DNA of 64,000 bases, taken from assembly GCA_016220165.1 (NCBI GenBank), contig JACRIE010000022.1:5456-69455 (forward strand), in the 5' to 3' direction. Made by a program: the position numbers and the translations under genes. Shown here piece by piece: positions 4,623 through 47,607 of this stretch. How positions within the stretch are numbered: position 1 is the first letter of the stretch; every line of letters starts with the position of its first letter. Source of the DNA: Candidatus Peregrinibacteria bacterium. Lineage in GTDB: Bacteria > Patescibacteriota > Gracilibacteria > UM-FILTER-43-11 > JACRIE01. The notes under the pieces were generated by a model that saw only the letters and a list, made by a program, of their open reading frames with translations, ran no database searches and was not told the origin of the DNA.

Positions 4623-4675
4623 AAATAAGCTTTTATCTGGCTAATAACTAACCGCTAATAGCTAAAAGCTTATTT
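4623..4675. repeat. 13-bp stem hairpin containing a GCTAAnn array at a convergent junction (possible terminator)
   Basis: aaataagctttta ... taaaagcttattt; gctaata actaacc gctaata gctaaaa. Confidence 0.7.
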
Positions 4676-5989
4676 AATCGTCGTCCCGATATAAAAAAAT
4701 GGCAACATGACGGCCAGAAGCGTTGATCCGACCAGCGCCGCCACCACAAAAATCATGAGCGGCTCGATGACGGACGAAAGATTCTTGAGAGTGTAATCGA
4801 TACTCTTTTTGTAGTTCGACCGGACTTTGAGGAGCATTTTACCGATTTTGCCCGTAGTCTCGCCAATGTGCACGAGTTGCGCGACCTGGAGGGGAAAGAG
4901 GCTTTTTCGCTTGGCATCCTGTCCAGATGAGAGATCGACAAGCCCCATCATTTCGCTCATCCCCTGCCCCATCATCACGCCCTGGCGGATTTTGGAGAGC
5001 TCTTGTTCGTAGTGGAGACTGCCCATGGTTTTGGCCGTGATCTCCAGGGCGTCGGTGATCAGCACGCCGCTTTGCATGAGCATGCCAAGGTTGGCCGAAA
5101 AAATCATGATCTGTTTTTCAGTCGCGATCTTGCCAAAAATCGGCATATAGGCCGTAAAACTCTCCCACAAAAAACGCCCAAAGCGGGTAAAATGCACCAA
5201 GCTCCATAAAAAAAGAAGGATGCCGGCAACGCCCAAAAACAAAAATTTCCAGTTCATCGAAACAAATTGGCTAAGCGCGATCACCTTTTGAGTGAGAACC
5301 GGCAACGACACATTCGCGTCCTTGTACATCGATGAAATTTTGGGAATAACAAATAGCATCATGCCCGTGATGAGCGTGATACACATGACAATGAGGATGG
5401 CCGGATAAAACATCGCGCCGGTCACCTTGCGGACAAAATCCTGATGCCCTTCCATCTCTTCCGTGAGTTCGGCTAAAACGGTTTTAAGATTGCCGCTTTT
5501 TTCGCCCGCTTCCACCAGGGCCGACATCATTTCGGGAAAAAGATGAGGCAATCCGCGCATGCTTTGGGCCAGCCCCATGCCCCCGTTGATGTCGTGAATC
5601 ATCTGGGCGTAAATCTTCTTGAGAGATCCGCTCTTCGCTTGACGCTGAATAATAGTGAGCGCGGGAATGAGCGTGACGCCCGAATCGATCAGCGTCGCGA
5701 GCTGGTCGAAGAAAAAAAGCCGTTCCTTGCCCGACAGCCTCAGCATCCTGAGCGACCAGGACAGTTTATTGGTTTCCTTCTTTATCTTTTCCCTCTTCTC
5801 AATCTTTACGGCTTCTTTCGGTTGCACTAGGACCCTCGAAGGGGCTCCTTCGAGACCGCTATTCGGCCCGCCATCTGGCTTGCTATCCGTAATCATCTTC
5901 TTCCTGGAAAAAATCCGCTCAAAAAACAGCTCCAGCTCAAACCCGAGCGCAATCCATCCATCCCGAATTTTGTGCGCTAGGAAGCTCAT
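4670..5989 (-). CDS. pilC: Type II secretion/type IV pilus platform protein (PilC/GspF)
   Basis: QLATLIDSGV, AGEKSGNL, AMFYP, IGETTG, IEPLMI motifs. Confidence 0.9.
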   Translation of the reverse strand: MSFLAHKIRDGWIALGFELELFFERIFSRKKMITDSKPDGGPNSGLEGAPSRVLVQPKEAVKIEKREKIKKETNKLSWSLRMLRLSGKERLFFFDQLATLIDSGVTLIPALTIIQRQAKSGSLKKIYAQMIHDINGGMGLAQSMRGLPHLFPEMMSALVEAGEKSGNLKTVLAELTEEMEGHQDFVRKVTGAMFYPAILIVMCITLITGMMLFVIPKISSMYKDANVSLPVLTQKVIALSQFVSMNWKFLFLGVAGILLFLWSLVHFTRFGRFLWESFTAYMPIFGKIATEKQIMIFSANLGMLMQSGVLITDALEITAKTMGSLHYEQELSKIRQGVMMGQGMSEMMGLVDLSSGQDAKRKSLFPLQVAQLVHIGETTGKIGKMLLKVRSNYKKSIDYTLKNLSSVIEPLMIFVVAALVGSTLLAVMLPFFYIGTTIK

Positions 5990-6017
5990 TCAAAATTAAA
6001 AATTAAAAAATTCAAAA

Positions 6018-6386
6018 TTATTTTTTATGAGAAGAAATTGAAAAAATACCAAATTTTGCAAGTTGCCTGGAAATATTTAAACTATCAGATTTTAGTTCAT
6101 TAAATTGCTCTTCCTCCAAATAACGGTTATCGAAAGCAATATAAAAAACAGCGCGACATTCTCCGGCAGAAGCCTTCGCCTGATTAATGAATCGAGCAAA
6201 ATCTATATTGGATGCACGTTCAAAACCCTCAGAAATATTCAAAAGTATTGATACGGCGGCTCGACGTAGCTGATCCCTCAAACCAAAATCACGCCCAAAC
6301 TGTTTCTCGGTAATTTTGTAAATTCTAGAAACAAAACGTCTCACTTCCTGCCACAATGGTATATCTCCAAAAGTTTGGTATTTCGT
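6018..6386 (-). CDS. Four-helix-bundle protein (TIGR02436 / 23S rRNA IVS protein / Avd-like); start codon uncertain
   Basis: LRDQLRRAAVSILLNISEGFER...AKASAGECR; frame extends upstream of TTG 6356 as (ACG)KYQTFGDIPLWQ with no ATG. Confidence 0.85.
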   Translation of the reverse strand, partial: TKYQTFGDIPLWQEVRRFVSRIYKITEKQFGRDFGLRDQLRRAAVSILLNISEGFERASNIDFARFINQAKASAGECRAVFYIAFDNRYLEEEQFNELKSDSLNISRQLAKFGIFSISSHKK

Positions 6387-6415
6387 ATTAATTTTGAATT
6401 AAATAGTATCTTAAT

Positions 6416-6444
6416 ATTATATCAAAATACGCCAAGAAAAACAA
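6416..6444 (-). promoter_or_regulatory. Putative sigma70 promoter inside the cassette
   Basis: Minus strand TTGTTT-17bp-TATAAT with TG extended -10. Confidence 0.55.
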
Positions 6445-6495
6445 GGGGTTTTGGCTTAACTACATTATTAAGCAACACACTTAATTTTGAATTTT

Positions 6496-7200
6496 CTAAT
6501 TTTTAATTTTGAATGAAAAGGACGATCCGAACACCTTTTTCAGAACGCTGAGCAGATCCATTGGGATCGGCGCCTCAATCGTGATAAGCTGTTTGAGGAA
6601 AGGGTGCATGAAACGGATCCGTTTCGCGTGCAAAAAAAGTCGGCCAAGCCGCAGAACAATGCGAAATTTACGATTAAACGCGAAATCCCCGTATTCGGCG
6701 TCCATGATGACGGGGCAGCCGATCCGCGAAAAGTGCTCGCGAATCTGATGGCGACGCCCTGTTTCGATTACGGCCTCAACCAAGGCGCAGGAAGCGCCGA
6801 AAATACGCATAGTTTTTAAAATACTAAAATGAGTTTTAGCCTCAACAGACACGTCCGCCGTACGGGCTTTGAGTGGGATTTGAACAGAATCCCCGCGCGG
6901 GACTCCCTTTAGAAAAGTGAGATAACTTTTTTCAGTTTCCGAATGCTGGAAAATGGCTTCCAAAGGAGTCCGGTCGCGCTCAAATTTTCCAAAAAGCAAT
7001 ACGCCAGATGTCTCCTTGTCTAACCGATGCAGCAAATAGGGTTTAAACCCTTTGCCTTCATACCGGCGCTGAACTTTGCCAAGAACCGACGCATTCAAAG
7101 ACGTCTGCGGATTGGGTACGGAAACCACGCGCGGCGGCTTCTGGATCGCGATCAAATAATCATCCTCATAAAGAGTGGGGATGAGATCTTTTTTAGGCAT
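6496..7200 (-). CDS. RluA-family pseudouridine synthase
   Basis: HRLDKETSG, TGRRHQIR and LFLHA motifs. Confidence 0.92.
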   Translation of the reverse strand: MPKKDLIPTLYEDDYLIAIQKPPRVVSVPNPQTSLNASVLGKVQRRYEGKGFKPYLLHRLDKETSGVLLFGKFERDRTPLEAIFQHSETEKSYLTFLKGVPRGDSVQIPLKARTADVSVEAKTHFSILKTMRIFGASCALVEAVIETGRRHQIREHFSRIGCPVIMDAEYGDFAFNRKFRIVLRLGRLFLHAKRIRFMHPFLKQLITIEAPIPMDLLSVLKKVFGSSFSFKIKN

Positions 7201-26912: not shown

Positions 26913-26936
26913 AAAAATTTTATCCGATAAAATTTT

Positions 26937-41570: not shown

Positions 41571-42107
41571 TTATGTCGCTGGCGTCACGAGATAAGGCAA
41601 ACAAGTCCCTGCGTCAAGAACTGAATCACAATCAGAACTATCTGCCTTTTGACCAGTCAAAGTCGGAGGCGTTTCCCCTTTGGTAACCACATAGGCGAGA
41701 TCATTATCCTTACCGGCATCATTTTCGAGTGTGGCCGCTAAAATATAATTGGAGCCGCTTACTTTATATCGATATTTCTGCCCTACTGTTACTGGCTTTG
41801 GATCAGTGGGAACTTTAGATAAATATTTTCCTGTTAACTCAGTGGCGCTGATAGTATCGCCTGCTCCTGCCACAGGATAAGCGTTATTTTCCACAAAATA
41901 CAATTCCAGTCCACTTTGTATTGACGTAAGATCCTGTTGTCGTCTGGAGTCCCTCGCCTTCGCAGTCTGTCCGCCCACGGCCGTGTAGGCCACCACCGAG
42001 AGAATCGCGATGATCGTGACAACCACCAGCAACTCCACGAGGCTGAACCCTTTATTTCTTCTTAATTCGTAATTCGTAATTCTGTAATTCGTAATTGCTT
42101 TGTCCAT
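41571..42107 (-). CDS. Type IV major pilin / GspG-like
   Basis: G|FSLVELLVVVTIIAILS; KARDSRR. Confidence 0.9.
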   Translation of the reverse strand: MDKAITNYRITNYELRRNKGFSLVELLVVVTIIAILSVVAYTAVGGQTAKARDSRRQQDLTSIQSGLELYFVENNAYPVAGAGDTISATELTGKYLSKVPTDPKPVTVGQKYRYKVSGSNYILAATLENDAGKDNDLAYVVTKGETPPTLTGQKADSSDCDSVLDAGTCLPYLVTPAT

Positions 42108-42173: not shown

Positions 42174-42803
42174 CTAGAACACCTCATCCATCTCAATCTT
42201 TTTGCCAAAATTACCCACGGGGATCTCCGCATGGAGCGCCCATTTGGCTTTATTGAACGCGCCAGTGCCCGAATGAGTGATCCGGTAATGCAGCGGCGCG
42301 TTCATGGATCGAAGCAGGAACGATGGTGGAGGAGAAGAGAGTAGCTGAAAGCTATCCGCGTATTCTCCGGAAGGACACGAAGCGCCTCCATGCGGCTTAG
42401 GAGGATCTGTCACGATCATTAAATCACCCGCTTCCTCCCCGCACAAATTCCAATGAACCGTAATAGTTCCGAGATCGCCGGATCCGCTCAAATCAAGAGT
42501 AGTACCGGCGCCGCTATCCAGCACGCCGTCAATCGTAGGCTGCCGCGTCATGGACGCTTTAATTCCGTCAAAATCCAATGATGGAACTGGCCCTGGCGGA
42601 TGAGCCTTCAAATAAGCCACATAACTCTCCAGGTACGCCTTTTGGCTGTGGTACGCAATCGTATCCCGCTGGGCATCCCGCATCACGCCCAGGCGAACCG
42701 CCAAAAAAAAGAACGCGGTCGTAAGCGCCAAACCGATCGTCACAGTCCAAATGAGGATGCTACCCCTTCTTCGATTGAAAATTAAAAATTGAAAATTAGT
42801 CAT
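42174..42803 (-). CDS. PilX-like minor pilin
   Basis: RRG|SILIWTV hydrophobic helix lacking E5. Confidence 0.6.
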   Translation of the reverse strand: MTNFQFLIFNRRRGSILIWTVTIGLALTTAFFFLAVRLGVMRDAQRDTIAYHSQKAYLESYVAYLKAHPPGPVPSLDFDGIKASMTRQPTIDGVLDSGAGTTLDLSGSGDLGTITVHWNLCGEEAGDLMIVTDPPKPHGGASCPSGEYADSFQLLSSPPPSFLLRSMNAPLHYRITHSGTGAFNKAKWALHAEIPVGNFGKKIEMDEVF

Positions 42804-44620
42804 AGTGGTGCATCTATTTTATATTCTTTTGTCTTCCCATTGCCAAAATCCAGGCCAATCGTAGCCTCAAGAATCTGATACGGCGCAACGCCATATTGAT
42901 GGAAATTCAATCCAGTTACCGTAAAACCGCTCGTCGCATAATCGAATTGAGAAATAGATCCCGGATCCAAATAGTTCAGACCACGAGAACTTCCTACACC
43001 GAAAGGAATAATCTGACCATCAAGACTGCTGGCCACATAGGCATCGGTGACTCCTGTAGGAAAATTCAAGCCAGTGTCTTTTACAACTTCGATCTTATCT
43101 TCAGCAGTACCAAGCACTCCATCCCCCTGGCGCAAGATAAAATACTGGGTCTGCACGATCGCGGGAGTCTGATCATAAATTTCCATTTTGACCGTATTGA
43201 ACAAATTCGGCAATGTGGCTGTACCGGGAATAAAATTCAAATGCCATTCAAAGGGGTCTTCGGCGAACTCTTTAAAAAGTCGAATAATCGTGCCTGCTGG
43301 ATAAGAATGAGTGGTTTCATTTTCAATAAAGTAGACATCGTTATTCTCTGGATGATCTACCCTAGCCCAAGGCGAGCCGCTGCCAATCTTGAGATATTCT
43401 CCATTAGCATTAAAAATATTTTCTCCTCCTTGTACCGTCACAAATCCCAAAGTACAAACTGGAGGACCTGAAGGCGCGGGATTAGTGCAATACGTAAGAC
43501 TCGTATCTTGAGACAATGTCGTGCTAAAATCCGAGGTCATGGCATTACCGGAAAAACGATAAATCGCTTTATGTAAATCATTAAGACCTTCCGTGATGTC
43601 GCTAATGCCTGCGCTGCCATCCGGAAACGTAAAAGTGACTTTTGATATGTACGTTGGATTATCCAAAGTGAACGCAAAGTCATAACTTAAAAGCGTCCCC
43701 GGATCACTCACTTTTAAAACTCGTCCGCTGCCGCTGTCTGCGATATAAAGGCTATTATCCTGAACCGAAAGACCTGTCGGCATATTGAGCTTGCAATAAA
43801 GCGCGGTATTATCGCAAGCAGTCGATTCTCCGCTACCCGCGATTGTCGTGACTTTTTTGTCAGCGATATTAATTTTTTTCACGAGATTATTCAGCGTATC
43901 TGCCACAAAAAGGGTTGGACTACTCCCAGTCGTACTATAGGCAATCCCCGTTGGAAAATTTAGACCGGAGGCAATCTCAGTAAACGTCGTTCCGGTTGCG
44001 TCAATTTTGACCACGCGGTTATTCCCGCTGTCCGTAACGTAAAAACTCGTCCCGTCCGTTATAATGTCCGTGGGCGCGCTGAGCCCGGAAGTAATCCAAT
44101 CGATGCAAGCGCCACTTTCACATTTCTGAACCTTATTTTCTAACGGGAACACCACGTAATAGATACTTCCATTCGCAACAAAACTCGAGGCATTCGTAAC
44201 GCCGGAAAGAACCTCCGTCTCATCCGATAATCGTTTAATCTTACCTGCACCCGAATCCAAATAATTCCCGTCTTTAATGCCATTAAAAATCATCAGATCC
44301 TTGAAAGCTAGTTGGGTGCCGCTTTTAGCAATATAGTTAAAGGAAACAACACCTTTTTCGTCGCTCTGGAACAAGATGTTGGAGGCGCTGGAGCCGCCTG
44401 GGAGAACCGTCTTCACGTGTCGCAATTTTTCACGAAAAATTTCCCCCGACGTAAACTGCTGTTGAGAAATTTGCGTCTGTTCCTGAGCCTGGAGCAGATT
44501 ATGAAACGTACTCGAAAAAAACGTGCTGAGTCCGAGCATGAGGATCGCCGTAATCGCAACGGAGACGATCAGTTCTACGAGGCTGAAGCCTTCCTTTAAT
44601 TTTAAATTTTCAATTTTCAA
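42800..44620 (-). CDS. Large minor pilin with NHL-repeat beta-propeller
   Basis: G|FSLVE; repeats LSAPTDI..YVTDSGNNRV, LNFPTGI..FVADTLNNLV, LNMPTGL..YIADSGSGRV. Confidence 0.8.
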   Translation of the reverse strand: MKIENLKLKEGFSLVELIVSVAITAILMLGLSTFFSSTFHNLLQAQEQTQISQQQFTSGEIFREKLRHVKTVLPGGSSASNILFQSDEKGVVSFNYIAKSGTQLAFKDLMIFNGIKDGNYLDSGAGKIKRLSDETEVLSGVTNASSFVANGSIYYVVFPLENKVQKCESGACIDWITSGLSAPTDIITDGTSFYVTDSGNNRVVKIDATGTTFTEIASGLNFPTGIAYSTTGSSPTLFVADTLNNLVKKINIADKKVTTIAGSGESTACDNTALYCKLNMPTGLSVQDNSLYIADSGSGRVLKVSDPGTLLSYDFAFTLDNPTYISKVTFTFPDGSAGISDITEGLNDLHKAIYRFSGNAMTSDFSTTLSQDTSLTYCTNPAPSGPPVCTLGFVTVQGGENIFNANGEYLKIGSGSPWARVDHPENNDVYFIENETTHSYPAGTIIRLFKEFAEDPFEWHLNFIPGTATLPNLFNTVKMEIYDQTPAIVQTQYFILRQGDGVLGTAEDKIEVVKDTGLNFPTGVTDAYVASSLDGQIIPFGVGSSRGLNYLDPGSISQFDYATSGFTVTGLNFHQYGVAPYQILEATIGLDFGNGKTKEYKIDAPL

Positions 44621-45063
44621 TTTTCAATTAATATGATCCGCTTCACGTCCACCGAATGCGGACCCGTATTGTCCGTCCATTCCACGCGCGACGTAACTTT
44701 ATAAGCACTCGTTAAACCGGTCCCGTCAGCGAGAATTAATCGTCTGAAAACACCTCCGATTAAAGGTTCTTGAGTATCTGCAAGGTTATAAGGCGCACTG
44801 GAAAGGTATTTCGTGCAAGGTGAATGGGCGCAAACAGGCTGAATAGCCGCGTATCCAAGCCCTTCCGCGATCTCAATACCCTGATTCGCCCAGAAATAAG
44901 CGTCCGACTCTTTTTCCGTCGTATTCGACAGCATCAGATTGCTCGTTTGGAGCTTTATGACGCCAAAAACAATGAGTGCCAAAAAAACCATGGCGAACAT
45001 GAGCTCGATGAGGCTGAAACCTTCTAGTGACAGGAGACGAGTGACGAGAAGTGAACGTTTCAT
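44617..45063 (-). CDS. PilV-like minor pilin
   Basis: G|FSLIELMFAMV; ATG 45063 preferred over 45114. Confidence 0.75.
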   Translation of the reverse strand: MKRSLLVTRLLSLEGFSLIELMFAMVFLALIVFGVIKLQTSNLMLSNTTEKESDAYFWANQGIEIAEGLGYAAIQPVCAHSPCTKYLSSAPYNLADTQEPLIGGVFRRLILADGTGLTSAYKVTSRVEWTDNTGPHSVDVKRIILIEN

Positions 45064-45128
45064 TTTTATTTTATATTCAGCCGCTATTATATCTCGTTCC
45101 TCGTCACTAGTCATTTGTCACTAAAACA

Positions 45129-45157
45129 TTGTAAAAACAGCCTTTTTTTGGTATAAT
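45129..45157 (+). promoter_or_regulatory. Putative sigma70 promoter for pilB
   Basis: TTGTAA-17-TATAAT. Confidence 0.6.
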
Positions 45158-45175
45158 ATTTAGATTCTTAAAAAA

Positions 45176-45253
45176 CACATGACAACTAACAACTGACACC
45201 TGACGTTGAAATGCATTTTATGGTCAATTGTCAGATGTCATATGTCAGATGTA
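45176..45253. repeat. Inverted TGACA/TGTCA heptamer arrays in the pilB 5' leader (empty version)
   Basis: tgacaac taacaac tgacacc tgac ... gtcaatt gtcagat gtcatat gtcagat gt; ATG at 45258. Confidence 0.88.
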
Positions 45254-45257
45254 AATT

Positions 45258-46487
45258 ATGTCTTTACTCGATACATTTCAAAAAAAGGAAAAAGAGGAAG
45301 GCCAACTGCCGACAACGGATTTCGATGACGAAAAAATTCCGGGCCTCGTGGATGAAATTTTCGCCGCGGCAATCAGCATACGGGCCAGCGATGTGCACTT
45401 CAAGCCCGTGGATGAGAAACTAAAAGTGTATTTTCGCGTGGATGGCGCGTTGCAGACCTTCCAGGAATTCGAAAAAATTTACCATCACCCCATCATCGCC
45501 CGTATTAAAATCATCTCGGGTCTCAAAATCGATGAACGCCGCTTGCCGCAGGATGGCAAAAGCAGTTTTGCCACTGAAGGAAAGGAGGTCGATCTGCGCG
45601 TCTCCGTTCTGCCCACGAGTTTTGGAGAAAAAGCCGTCATCCGTATTTTGGAAAAAAATCCGGAAATGATCAATCTTCGGGACTTGGGAATGTTGCCGAA
45701 TATCCTGCTCCGAATCGAAAAACATCTAAAAGCCACTTACGGTATGATTATGGCCGTGGGCCCAACCGGAAGCGGAAAATCGACCTCGCTCTTTTCCATG
45801 ATTTCGACGTTTGACGCGACCAAGGTCAACATTTCGACTCTGGAAGATCCCATCGAATACAAAATCCCCAACGTGACGCAGACACAAATCAACACGGACA
45901 TCGGATTTGACTTCTCCGACGGATTGCGCACGCTCGTCCGCCAGGACCCCGATATCATCATGGTCGGTGAAATCCGCGACAAAAAAACAGCCTCGCTGGC
46001 GATCGAATCCGCGCTGACCGGCCACCTGGTCTTTTCCACGCTTCACACGAATACGGCCGTGGGAAGCATCCAGCGCCTCCTCAACATGGAAATCGACCGC
46101 TTCCTGATCTCAACCGCGATCAAACTGATCATCTCTCAGCGACTGGTGCGCAAGGTGTGCAGTTATTGCCGCGAACCCTATGCCGTGCCGTCCAAGTACC
46201 ACGAGCTGTTGCAACGGGAGACCGGCATGGATCCGGCGAAAGCCTTCTTTTATAGAGCCAAAGGCTGTGAGCGCTGCCACAACATCGGCTACCACGGCCG
46301 TATCGGACTTTTTGAAGTTTTGGAAATGTCGCCCGTGATCGAAGAGATGATCGTGAAAGGCGTCACAAACCAGGAAATCGAAGCGCAAGCCGCGAAAGAA
46401 GGCATGATTCTCCTCAAAAAAGACGCGCTCTACAAAGCGGCCACTGGAGACATTACGATTGAAGAAGCGATTAAGGTTATGACGTAG
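45258..46487 (+). CDS. pilB: Type IV pilus assembly ATPase PilB/GspE
   Basis: ASDVH, RLPQDG, GPTGSGKS, EDPIE, RQDPD, TGHLVFSTLH, CxxC pairs. Confidence 0.93.
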   Translation: MSLLDTFQKKEKEEGQLPTTDFDDEKIPGLVDEIFAAAISIRASDVHFKPVDEKLKVYFRVDGALQTFQEFEKIYHHPIIARIKIISGLKIDERRLPQDGKSSFATEGKEVDLRVSVLPTSFGEKAVIRILEKNPEMINLRDLGMLPNILLRIEKHLKATYGMIMAVGPTGSGKSTSLFSMISTFDATKVNISTLEDPIEYKIPNVTQTQINTDIGFDFSDGLRTLVRQDPDIIMVGEIRDKKTASLAIESALTGHLVFSTLHTNTAVGSIQRLLNMEIDRFLISTAIKLIISQRLVRKVCSYCREPYAVPSKYHELLQRETGMDPAKAFFYRAKGCERCHNIGYHGRIGLFEVLEMSPVIEEMIVKGVTNQEIEAQAAKEGMILLKKDALYKAATGDITIEEAIKVMT

Positions 46488-46497
46488 GCTGCACCTA

Positions 46498-46980
46498 ACA
46501 TTTGACAACTGACATTTGACAATTGACCGAATAACCGATGAAAAAATTTCGCTTCAGAGAATTTCAGGTCTATAGAGATTCAAGAAAATTTAGTAGTAAA
46601 AATTTAAAATCTTTAACAAGGATTAAATTTCCTAAGGAGGAACAATTCTGCCTCACTTCACAGCTCTGGAGAGCTTTGGATTCAATAATATTAAATATCG
46701 CAGAAGGTTCCGATCGAGGTACGGACAAAGATTTCGCGCATTTTTTAAATACTTCACACACTTCTCTTAATGAAGTTGTCGCGTGTCTGGATGTCGCCTT
46801 AGATAGCAAATATCTTACAGAAAAAGAACATGATGAATGTCTTAAGGAATCAGAATTATTAGGAAATCAATTAACAGCATTCCGAAAAAGACTTCTGGAT
46901 AATCCAACCAAATAGGAACTATGCCAAAAGTTAAAAGCCAGATATCAACGGTCAATTGTCAAATGTCAAAAGTCAAATGT
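46498..46980. mobile_element. Second four-helix-bundle cassette bounded by 32-bp inverted TGACA arms
   Basis: 46498-46529 versus 46949-46980: 29/32 complementary; mobility is inferred only. Confidence 0.6.
46538..46915 (+). CDS. Four-helix-bundle protein (TIGR02436 / IVS protein / Avd-like)
   Basis: FREFQVY...FPKEEQFCLTSQLWRALDSIILNIAEG...SLNEV. Confidence 0.92.
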   Translation: MKKFRFREFQVYRDSRKFSSKNLKSLTRIKFPKEEQFCLTSQLWRALDSIILNIAEGSDRGTDKDFAHFLNTSHTSLNEVVACLDVALDSKYLTEKEHDECLKESELLGNQLTAFRKRLLDNPTK

Positions 46981-47607
46981 GCGAACGGTTTTTCGCTCGT
47001 TGAACTCCTGATCGCCGTCGCCATCATCGCGATCATCAGCGTGGGATCTATGGCGAGTTTTAGCTTGGTCGGAGACATCGTTCGCGTAAAACAGGGCGCG
47101 GGACTCATCCAGGACATCATTCATCAAATGGATGGACAAGCGCTTCGTGGCGAGTATCAAAAAATGACAGTTCATTTTTTAACGAATTATTTAGTAATTG
47201 AGTATGAGCCAAAAGGCCTGGAATCCAATCTCTTAAAATGGGATTCAAATAACATCACGGCAACTCAAGGCGGGAATCTTTATAAATCGGATAGCGCTGG
47301 AAGACAGATTAGTATTAATGTGGTGCCTGCGGGATCGGTTCAAAACCTCGATACAAATTTTCGAAATGCGAAAGAAGATGGTTGGCAATTTCAACTCAAA
47401 AATGGCAATCAATTTTCTGAAATCATTGCTCTGCGCCATTTCAACGTAAACCGCGACAGTCAGCAGACAAACCTACTGAGTCTCGATCCAAATACGGTCA
47501 TTTTAACTGTGGAGGCGCCTTATGCAAAACATAGCGTCTCCGGCGGAAACACCCTGAAAATGCATGACGCCAAAGCAAACAAAGAAGAAACCATTGAAAT
47601 AAAATAA
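46963..47607 (+). CDS. Prepilin-type protein
   Basis: MSKVKCANG|FSLVELLIAV; alternative in-frame ATG at 46921. Confidence 0.8.
   Translation: MSKVKCANGFSLVELLIAVAIIAIISVGSMASFSLVGDIVRVKQGAGLIQDIIHQMDGQALRGEYQKMTVHFLTNYLVIEYEPKGLESNLLKWDSNNITATQGGNLYKSDSAGRQISINVVPAGSVQNLDTNFRNAKEDGWQFQLKNGNQFSEIIALRHFNVNRDSQQTNLLSLDPNTVILTVEAPYAKHSVSGGNTLKMHDAKANKEETIEIK

Follow-up and report, generated by a model that had tools for sequence, protein, structure and literature searches.

A four-helix-bundle gene between inverted heptamer arrays at a pilB-prepilin junction: a candidate mobile cassette of the rRNA intervening-sequence type in Peregrinibacteria

The 23S rRNA genes of Coxiella burnetii and Leptospira can carry intervening sequences (IVSs) with an open reading frame (ORF) that encodes an S23p protein of family PF05635 (PMC4990558). 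In the parts of that account on which we draw, the IVS is excised by RNase III, its stem starts at heptameric repeats, and a protein of the family is described as a homopentameric toroid (PMC4990558). ORFs of the same type, under the name 23S_rRNA_IVP, occur in rRNA insertions of the Candidate Phyla Radiation (CPR), according to a passage of PMC11270868; Avd of the diversity-generating retroelements (DGRs) is homologous to PF05635, as an excerpt of PMC10053308 states; and four-helix-bundle genes are simply listed in the section of PMC8700078 that concerns them. TAACTGA heptamers have been described before start codons in Beggiatoaceae, cyanobacteria and Bacteroidetes (PMC4679880), in the accessible text of which the terms 'S23' and 'intervening sequence' occur zero times each. 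Can an element of the IVS type live in a protein-coding operon? Here, we describe a four-helix-bundle (4HB) gene which, together with its repeat arms, occupies 483 nt (46498-46980, + strand) between pilB and a prepilin gene. It lies in a window of 64,000 nt, the whole stretch of DNA analysed (G000:C3:5456-69455), from the genome of a Candidatus Peregrinibacteria bacterium, called G000 below (1.217 Mb in 73 contigs, 98% complete). G-numbers denote genomes and L-numbers 4HB loci; the window cassette is L004.

We lean, with restrained confidence, towards reading 46498-46980 as a discrete, horizontally moving cassette of the rRNA-IVS type, in which a 4HB gene is enclosed by inverted T(G/A)ACAnn arrays. 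The stop codon of pilB (46485-46487) is followed by a spacer of 10 nt and then by the left arm (46498-46529, +), 32 nt of TGACAnn units with a period of 7 and 4.3 copies. After another 8 nt, the 4HB gene (46538-46915, +) encodes a PF05635/TIGR02436 protein of 125 aa. The right arm (46949-46980, +), again 32 nt and 4.3 copies at period 7, consists of nnTGTCA units and pairs with the left arm. The two arms are 419 nt apart and complementary at 29/32 positions (91%), in the order of 9 matches, 3 mismatches and 20 matches, and their units differ at 2/7 positions (78-86% matches in Tandem Repeats Finder, TRF). The 33 nt between the 4HB stop and the right arm resemble decayed units: by their sequence, degenerate outer heptamers nnGYCAA (46921-46948, +) extend the right array, and 46929-46959 is 65% like the arm. 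The leader-coding part of the prepilin gene (46921-47607) is made of this same right array. Its ATG at 46963 lies inside the right arm and reads MSKVKC, part of the prepilin leader, and a second in-frame ATG stands at 46921, 5 nt past the 4HB stop. The initial annotation had recognised this layout, with its 32-nt TGACAnn arms, 20 perfect base pairs, 10-nt distance from the pilB stop and MSKVKC leader, and all of it is confirmed in the sequence. It had also pointed to a version of the arms with no gene, 1.3 kb away, and this is present at 45175-45252 (+): a TGAC array (45180-45204), a loop of ~17 nt and a GTCA array (45229-45252), ending 5 nt ahead of the pilB ATG, with arms 77% and 87% identical to those of the cassette.

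The protein is a regular member of its family. It matches PF05635 23S_rRNA_IVP with E 3.2e-27 and 95.3 bits (cut-off 33.8), and scores 89.6 bits against TIGR02436, above the curated cut-off of 24. Residues Q43, R46, S50, N54, E57 and E80, nearly invariant across 30 aligned PF05635 members, are all kept, and it has the conserved Q..R...S...N..E(G) core of helix 2. Its relatives in the PDB are 2gsc_A (E 1.1e-9) and 2rld_A, with five chains in each entry, so that a homopentameric ring of four-helix bundles is predicted for it by homology. The cassette holds no second ORF, PF05635 being its sole Pfam match, and no promoter-like or terminator-like site was found inside it. A scan of 44800-47300 against Rfam gave no rRNA and no family, the sole hit being a chance snoRNA of 21.7 bits against a gathering score of 45. 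It is to be noted that arms of such quality are rare in this genome. When flanking inverted repeats were scored for the 1098 predicted genes of G000, the window 4HB gene ranked second (score 23), and just 16/1098 genes reached 15 or more. TGAC/GTCA arrays of at least three units at period 7 number 62 in G000, compared with 0-1 in five shuffled genomes.

Do the arms belong to the gene or to the place? Of 41 genomes, G000 among them, 31 have PF05635 genes, with 16 copies at most. From 116 4HB loci fetched at the level of the order and class, five with short flanks, two open frames of >200 aa and two duplicates were excluded, and the remaining 107 proteins were placed in a tree; a later tree, with five pilB-adjacent domains added and one row with N in its flank removed, has 111 rows. 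A flanking inverted repeat with a score of at least 14 is present at 68 of the 106 loci with usable flanks. The repeat period differs among loci (6, 7, 8, 9 or 11/12) and tracks the protein tree: with 63 rows labelled, the 111-row tree needs 10 changes of period, against 24-32 in 300 label shuffles, and the period-11/12 arrays are all confined to one 28-row clade. Arm similarity declines with tree distance across 3435 inter-genome pairs (rho -0.173, a value reached by 0/500 permutations). The window protein groups with those of L050 and L088 in a five-row clade (SH-aLRT branch support 98), and these two loci also have heptamer arms with a GTCA core. Both the label-shuffle and the permutation tests overstate the correspondence because relatives share labels; therefore, cases in which the locus is separated from the gene were examined.

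The pilB-pilin junction itself is such a case. Orthologues of the window pilB are present in 25 relatives with 69-76% identity, and their junction states, as read by eye, are diverse. Nine of the 25 are bare, the pilin following after at most 48 nt, five have gene-less repeats or hairpins of various words, two have longer spacers with no clear arrays, three have another gene next, and six have a 4HB gene with nonamer arms (AGGATTATT-like). Genus g2 by itself displays three different junction states. The six junction 4HB proteins make up an exclusive clade (support 79), at a tree distance of 4.28 from the window protein, whose nearest relative is at 0.71. Since another clade with nonamer arms occupies the same junction, the junction is colonised independently at least two times, by different clades, each with its own arms. 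Thus, bare, gene-less and otherwise occupied junctions do exist, as the filled and empty states proposed in the initial annotation would have it, and G000 has 12 gene-less hairpins of the TGACA family; the hairpin at 45175-45252 is, however, a member of this dispersed family and not a demonstrated emptied cassette.

An empty allele was also sought as presence/absence polymorphism in the contigs of three DNA runs of one study, one run probably being the source of the assembly. In a single contig (depth 3, 22 letters on its shorter side), 46527 is followed, after 8 other letters, by 46954; we take this for a further gene-less hairpin, belonging to the family or to another organism, and not for an empty allele. 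No length variant of the arrays was seen in these contigs, which cannot reveal rare variants. As an observation beside this, at five of the six nonamer-armed junctions (L120, L126, L128, L139 and L143, in G010, G012, G014, G019 and G029) the 4HB frame runs stop-free into the prepilin frame, giving fused open frames of 347-412 aa. A period of 9 nt keeps the frame, so the 4HB domain would there be a giant prepilin leader that ends at the G|F cleavage site.

How far does the cassette reach beyond its own order? In a wider sample with one genome per species, 80 loci were collected, of which 78 remained after two with short flanks were dropped. Relatives with up to 74% identity are found in records that bear the names Parcubacteria-group, Saccharibacteria, Peregrinibacteria, WOR-1, Omnitrophota and others. 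Arms, counted when at least three T[GA]AC units lie upstream and at least three GT[TC]A units downstream at period 7, are found at 28/38 loci with at least 60% protein identity, at 4/13 loci with 50-59% and at 6/27 loci with 40-49%, and at 0/106 order-level 4HB loci outside the clade, which served as the control. A sub-branch has 8-nt AGAAACTN arms instead. The units have the consensus T(G/A)ACA(A/T)T, in which positions 1-4 are preset by the search expression and positions 5-7 alone are informative; their median number per arm is four. Across 30-40% protein divergence and across lineages, both arms keep the same unit core, with free variation at two positions. The idea of the initial annotation that protein clades match repeat families is thereby supported as a correlation, on the tree as well as in the wider sample, and as a pattern of gains.

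The outer limits of the cassette are sharp. In alignments of non-syntenic copies from three groups, similarity begins and stops at the outer ends of the arms, and no target-site duplication is evident at the cassette ends in these three alignments. The outer flanks are non-homologous in 186 of the 228 close inter-genome protein pairs, and the window locus shares no flank homology with L050 or L088. At 73-74%, protein identity to members of other CPR classes equals that of pilB within the order, which suggests, as far as sequences can tell, horizontal transfer of the whole cassette across CPR lineages. Cassettes lie on the same strand as their upstream neighbour in 44/55 clear cases and as their downstream neighbour in 38/58, little different from the 68% of co-directional junctions in G000, so that nothing is claimed about orientation.

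The arms have relatives all over G000. This genome has seven PF05635 genes. One of them is a classical 23S rRNA IVS: L007 (G000 C8:32683-33219), a 143-aa PF05635 ORF with 25/27 inverted arms, inside a match to large-subunit (LSU) rRNA; by eye, its arms have a 14-nt periodicity. Four non-rRNA 4HB genes are enclosed by strong inverted arrays, each with its own word: TGACAnn, GTGACGA/GAGACGA, TTCAAAA/TTAAAAA and CTAATTT/TTAGAAA. Period-7 rows of TRF amount to 429, against 46 at period 6 and 121 at period 8; merged, they give 340 arrays, of which 253 are intergenic (39 expected). Tests of 192 neighbouring array pairs found 58 inverted ones, 47 with loops of at most 110 nt and five with loops of 423-460 nt, and four of these five are 4HB cassettes. 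The short-loop hairpins lie between co-directional genes in 36/47 cases, nearly filling the spacer, and many of them, the GCTAA family included, end 2-8 nt ahead of the next start codon. The 12 TGACA hairpins have common loop sequences and a palindromic 3' tail, which makes them copies of one another, as opposed to products of independent decay. Gene-less hairpins also keep conserved mismatches between their arms.

To which cassettes do these arrays correspond? For each set of cassette arms, the number of matched arrays was counted among 804 arrays elsewhere in G000. The five cassettes of G000 itself come out on top, with 80, 54, 48, 38 and 28 arrays, the figure of 80 being inflated by a neighbouring array of another family, while 85/100 foreign arms match at most three arrays. 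The foreign arms with many matches are mostly from protein clades that have a G000 member. Single-linkage clustering of the heptamer units was dropped, as it put 330 of the 340 arrays into a single chained group. A resident reverse transcriptase as the agent of retro-mobility was likewise rejected for G000, where PF00078 has zero matches.

Some further features of these hairpins are recorded here for their own sake. A palindromic 21-mer, AAATTTTAY-N3-RTAAAATTT, has 24 sites in G000 (e.g., C3:32370, which is window position 26915; C9:5165; C26:43388), 3' of many heptamer hairpins of several families and just ahead of the gene that comes next. Its role may be that of an operator or a promoter element, or it may form a second, small hairpin. 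With a spacer of 4 nt, the tail motif had zero matches in the window, and with a variable spacer it gave the 24 of the genome. Within the loops of some heptamer hairpins, from different families, there is a small GC-rich hairpin of the CCCGCC..GGCGGG type (C67:15398-15507, C32:1869-1954, C6:10402-10502, C35:6584-6672, C48:5951-6036 and C15:23266-23369). The last but one of these, together with C35:6584-6672 and C51:2075-2126, is also an example of a GTAACTT/TTACGAA-type family whose nearest foreign cassette is L045 of G010. An unusually long array (132 nt, GACGAGA/CTCGTCT units) with a short inverted arm is located at C59:9550-9716, inside a predicted ORF of 447 aa.

One might object that the hairpins are generic devices of the host, such as terminators, attenuators or mRNA stabilisers, and that 4HB genes just happen to land in their loops. 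There are 47 short-loop hairpins and seven 4HB genes, the hairpins occupy the spacers between cistrons, in many cases stopping 2-8 nt short of a start codon, some of their loops contain other small GC-rich hairpins, and intergenic heptamer arrays lie directly ahead of start codons in other phyla with 4HB proteins unmentioned in the parts of the source considered here (PMC4679880). In that case, however, the arms ought to follow the locus or the genome, and they track the protein clade instead, the nonamer arms going with the other clade at the same junction. The heptamer family is shared by the 28/38 close relatives in other lineages and by none of the 106 controls; a cassette of the same clade in genome G024 is armed even though just one other array of the family exists there; and relatives that have no 4HB genes have no excess of period 7. 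We therefore regard this account, already disfavoured, as very improbable.

The last point deserves its numbers. TRF rows of period 7 per 100 kb amount to 35.2 in G000 and 16.6 in G024, against 3.5, 2.5 and 5.1 in 4HB-poor samples, in which PF05635 is absent or gives one weak hit (200 kb of G007; 118 kb of G034; 79 kb of G006, G013 and G017 together). Rows of period 6 per 100 kb are alike across the genomes (1.7-5.1). Thus, where there is no 4HB gene there is no heptamer excess; the direction is clear, in samples that are few and related. G024, a whole genome on a single contig, provides a second test of array matching. It has ten 4HB hits and an excess of period-7 rows, 222 against 43 at period 6. 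The commonest family of arrays in it is best matched by arms of the L051 clade, by three foreign sets with 58, 42 and 24 arrays and by L051 itself with 17, and its other resident cassettes match 10, 5, 4, 1 and 0 arrays. G024 is a partial replicate of G000.

What speaks against the cassette reading, and against a strict pairing of protein and repeat? We gather the points here. At 38 of the 106 order-level loci there is no clear flanking inverted repeat (score below 14), and two of the seven 4HB genes of G000 are not enclosed by arms, one having a weak left arm alone (GCTAAnA word) and another simply following a hairpin. Shared descent of gene and arms would by itself yield a correlation of clade and arm, relatives not being independent. 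The GTAACTT/TTACGAA-type family, with ~25-29 arrays in G000 (25 matched by foreign arms), has no evident cognate cassette there. In G024, cassettes L050 and L053 have one and zero dispersed arrays, respectively, and resident arms are outscored by foreign arms of the same clade. Near-relative foreign arms match five or more arrays more often than distant ones in G000 (7/15 vs 6/84, p = 5e-4) and in G024 (3/14 vs 3/91, p = 0.03), with thresholds in both tables picked after the data had been seen, and the rank correlations of protein distance with array hits (rho -0.06 and -0.15) are not significant. The comparison with 4HB-free DNA consists of samples of 79-200 kb from five related genomes. Arms are ~27-31 nt long at any period, with 4.1 units at period 7 and 2.6 at period 12; as arm length stays near 30 nt whatever the period, and unit number does not stay constant, a simple reading of one unit per subunit of the pentamer is unsupported and was set aside. 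Mismatches of the G:U type, counted in sense orientation, are not in excess over A:C, neither in the arms of 78 cassettes (63 vs 74) nor in 37 hairpins (13 vs 16), so that selection on an RNA stem is invisible, and this candidate was set aside as unsupported. Finally, binding, processing and movement are all steps that we infer. Of the paralogue-specific protein-repeat pairs in the initial annotation, the part that stands is that arms track the clade and not the locus; one protein, one family is not a strict rule, as the GTAACTT family and the G024 cassettes with 0-1 arrays tell us.

Several of these points bear equally on the most serious competitor, in which the element is a pure IVS-like RNA element. 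Its arms would exist for nothing else than a double-stranded RNA stem cut by RNase III, their periodicity would come from slippage or concerted evolution, the function of the protein would be unrelated, and clade-specific arms would reflect shared descent. Its architecture is indeed that of ORF-bearing rRNA IVSs, one of which resides in G000. The long-range stem of 29 bp appears in the minimum free energy (MFE) and centroid folds of 46480-46995 (z -3.9; 0/100 shuffles fold equally well), and the hairpin 45175-45252 folds as RNA with -24.8 kcal/mol (z -2.7). A gene for RNase III is present in G000, excision by that enzyme of an IVS whose stem begins at heptameric repeats is on record in the portion of PMC4990558 cited above, and arms of ~30 nt at any period fit a constraint on stem length. 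A stem under selection should, however, tolerate G:U in preference to A:C in sense orientation, and no such bias is seen. A unit core that stays constant in both arms over 30-40% divergence, with two positions free, resembles a recognition word more than a helix; gene-less hairpins conserve their arm mismatches; and a cut within the right arm would lose the pilin start at 46963. On this evidence we consider the pure RNA element unlikely.

What, then, of the pilins? In G000, the leader-coding region of five of the ten prepilin-like genes has a period-7 array, located no more than 75 nt upstream of where the leader is cleaved. One could imagine that these are contingency repeats, by which slippage in the 5' parts of pilin coding regions switches pilins on and off through frameshifts (phase variation), the cassette arms being incidental. 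Seven is not a multiple of three, and in the sections of PMC4990558 on the IVS, the number of heptameric repeats upstream of its ORF differs between strains. On the other hand, perfect tandem units are not what we find here: units that differ at 2/7 positions are poor substrates for slippage, 253/340 arrays are intergenic, the arrays come as inverted pairs, and no length variant turned up in the contigs examined, in which rare variants would escape notice. This explanation is hardly probable. Arrays in five of ten leaders are probably accounted for by tolerance of the leader. It is true that both window 4HB genes stand ahead of pilus genes, as had been noted at the outset, but the link to pili does not generalise: a prepilin motif lies just downstream at 1/105 order-level 4HB loci and at 5/78 wider relatives.

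The second of these genes belongs to the other window cassette (5988-6514, - strand), whose 4HB gene (6018-6356) is enclosed by arms at 5988-6020 and 6481-6514. These are made of TTCAAAA/TTAAAAA units, 34/35 complementary, and the cassette lies upstream of a PilC/GspF gene (4670-5989). The two window 4HB proteins (46538-46915 and 6018-6356) have 32% identity. The neighbours of L004 are a pilB-type secretion ATPase gene (45258-46487, +, 409 aa; PF00437 T2SSE, E 8.8e-118) and a prepilin-like gene (46921-47607, +) with PF07963 N_methyl (E 5.3e-7) and a leader that ends in G|FSLVEL. Other prepilin leaders of this genome are coded by heptamer arrays of different families, e.g., ITNYRITNYELRR and KLKIENLKLKEG; leader arrays are found at 42059-42096, 42774-42798, 44598-44629 and 45022-45048 of the window and at C43:1482 and C58:651 of G000. 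A pilin-like gene of 606 aa with NHL repeats (42800-44620, -) is placed within inverted AATTTTC/GAAAATT arrays (42774-42798 and 44598-44629), 23/25 complementary and 1799 nt apart, both of which code N-termini of successive pilin genes. For the pilin-like gene 44617-45114 (-), inverted arrays of CTCGTCA type at 45022-45126 (27 nt, 81% complementary, 51 nt apart) flank both the start codon and a promoter-like site, and one arm codes LLVTRLLSLE in the leader.

If 46498-46980 is a cassette as we propose, how would it work? The arms would be cis sites recognised by the 4HB protein of the cassette itself. Four to five bases per unit are kept in both arms while two drift, which gives them the look of a repeated binding word, and the conserved bases might be that word. 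Gene-less hairpins would be non-autonomous copies relying on a resident 4HB protein, in the fashion of REPINs and RAYTs. The insert would be co-transcribed with pilB and the pilin gene, since the cassette has neither a promoter-like nor a terminator-like site within it. A promoter-like site at 45129-45157 (+; TTGTAA, 17 nt, TG-TATAAT; 10/12 consensus matches), put forward as a promoter on its consensus match alone, would have the pilB transcript begin immediately ahead of the gene-less hairpin. Three things might make the insert tolerable to the host: its place in a spacer between cistrons; the pilin ATG at 46921, 5 nt past the 4HB stop, which would allow translational coupling and keep the pilin expressed; and the position of the array-coded residues in the prepilin leader, which would be cleaved off. 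In the transcript, pairing of the arms could form a 29-bp RNA stem, open to RNase III cleavage of the kind known from rRNA IVSs; this is the weakest step of the scheme. As to movement, the simplest candidate for a cassette with neither transposase nor reverse transcriptase is recombination between arrays of the same family.

A much wider proposition can be derived from this scheme, which is possible and which we offer tentatively. PF05635 4HB proteins may be the sequence-specific trans-acting factor of pan-bacterial, so far unrecognised mobile elements whose ends are inverted arrays of short tandem words; each clade would read its own word and spacing (6 to 12 nt), maintain gene-less hairpins in operon junctions, and hop between lineages as a cassette of ~480 nt. 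If so, one explanation would cover rRNA IVSs, the heptamer repeats found between genes in several phyla, and where DGR Avd came from. To our knowledge, PF05635/TIGR02436 is a very large family with solved structures and no known function outside DGRs, and we know of no explanation of rRNA IVSs and intergenic heptamer repeats in decades. Our literature search found no paper connecting PF05635 proteins with tandem-repeat arms outside rRNA, and supplementary repeat tables could bear on this novelty. The proposition comes down to a concrete and cheap hypothesis, namely that a 4HB protein binds its own tandem word, and nature provides the controls: a single 1.2-Mb genome with seven paralogues that differ in their words, one junction with two clades, and relatives with neither the genes nor the repeats. 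The arrays have practical consequences as well, for they rewrite the 5' ends of genes (here the prepilin leader), fuse 4HB and pilin frames in relatives, break assemblies, and could be mistaken in annotation for other repeat systems.

Where does the cassette belong among known elements? In REPIN-RAYT systems, a single-copy gene is flanked by repeats that are dispersed as intergenic hairpins, each clade of the gene having its own repeat family, and the RAYT is an HUH transposase. The window system likewise has a gene flanked by repeats that are dispersed as intergenic hairpins, matches clade and repeat, with leaks, and lacks the repeats where the gene is missing. It differs in that its protein is a small four-helix bundle with no known catalytic motif instead of an HUH (Y1) transposase, and in that its repeats are tandem arrays of 6-12-nt units instead of one palindrome. 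Cyanobacterial short tandemly repeated repetitive (STRR) sequences are unexplained intergenic heptamer arrays, too. The TAACTGA heptamers resemble the window arrays in having period 7, in being mostly intergenic and in often ending a few bases before a start codon, whereas they are described, in the parts of the account compared here, as direct repeats with no link to a 4HB gene (PMC4679880). DGR Avd shares with the window protein its fold family and the character of a small basic helical protein working with nucleic acid; unlike in a DGR, however, there is no reverse transcriptase in G000 and there are no pairs of template and variable repeats at the locus, whose neighbours are pilB and a prepilin gene, and a 30-sequence PF05635 profile run against PDB sequences did not reach Avd at E 0.01. 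Closest of all is the rRNA IVS, which like the window cassette is an insert of ~430-480 nt with a PF05635 protein in the loop and no enzyme encoded, and has terminal inverted repeats with a stem of ~28 bp and, in the portion of the account at hand, heptameric repeats on its 5' side (PMC4990558). In contrast to it, the window cassette resides in a protein-coding operon (pilB/prepilin) and not in a 23S or 16S rRNA gene, both of its arms are tandem arrays of a clade-specific family, gene-less copies are dispersed, and there is no signal of selection on RNA pairing. Taken together, the element is best filed as one of the IVS type, acting outside rRNA and organised like REPIN-RAYT with a non-enzymatic protein.

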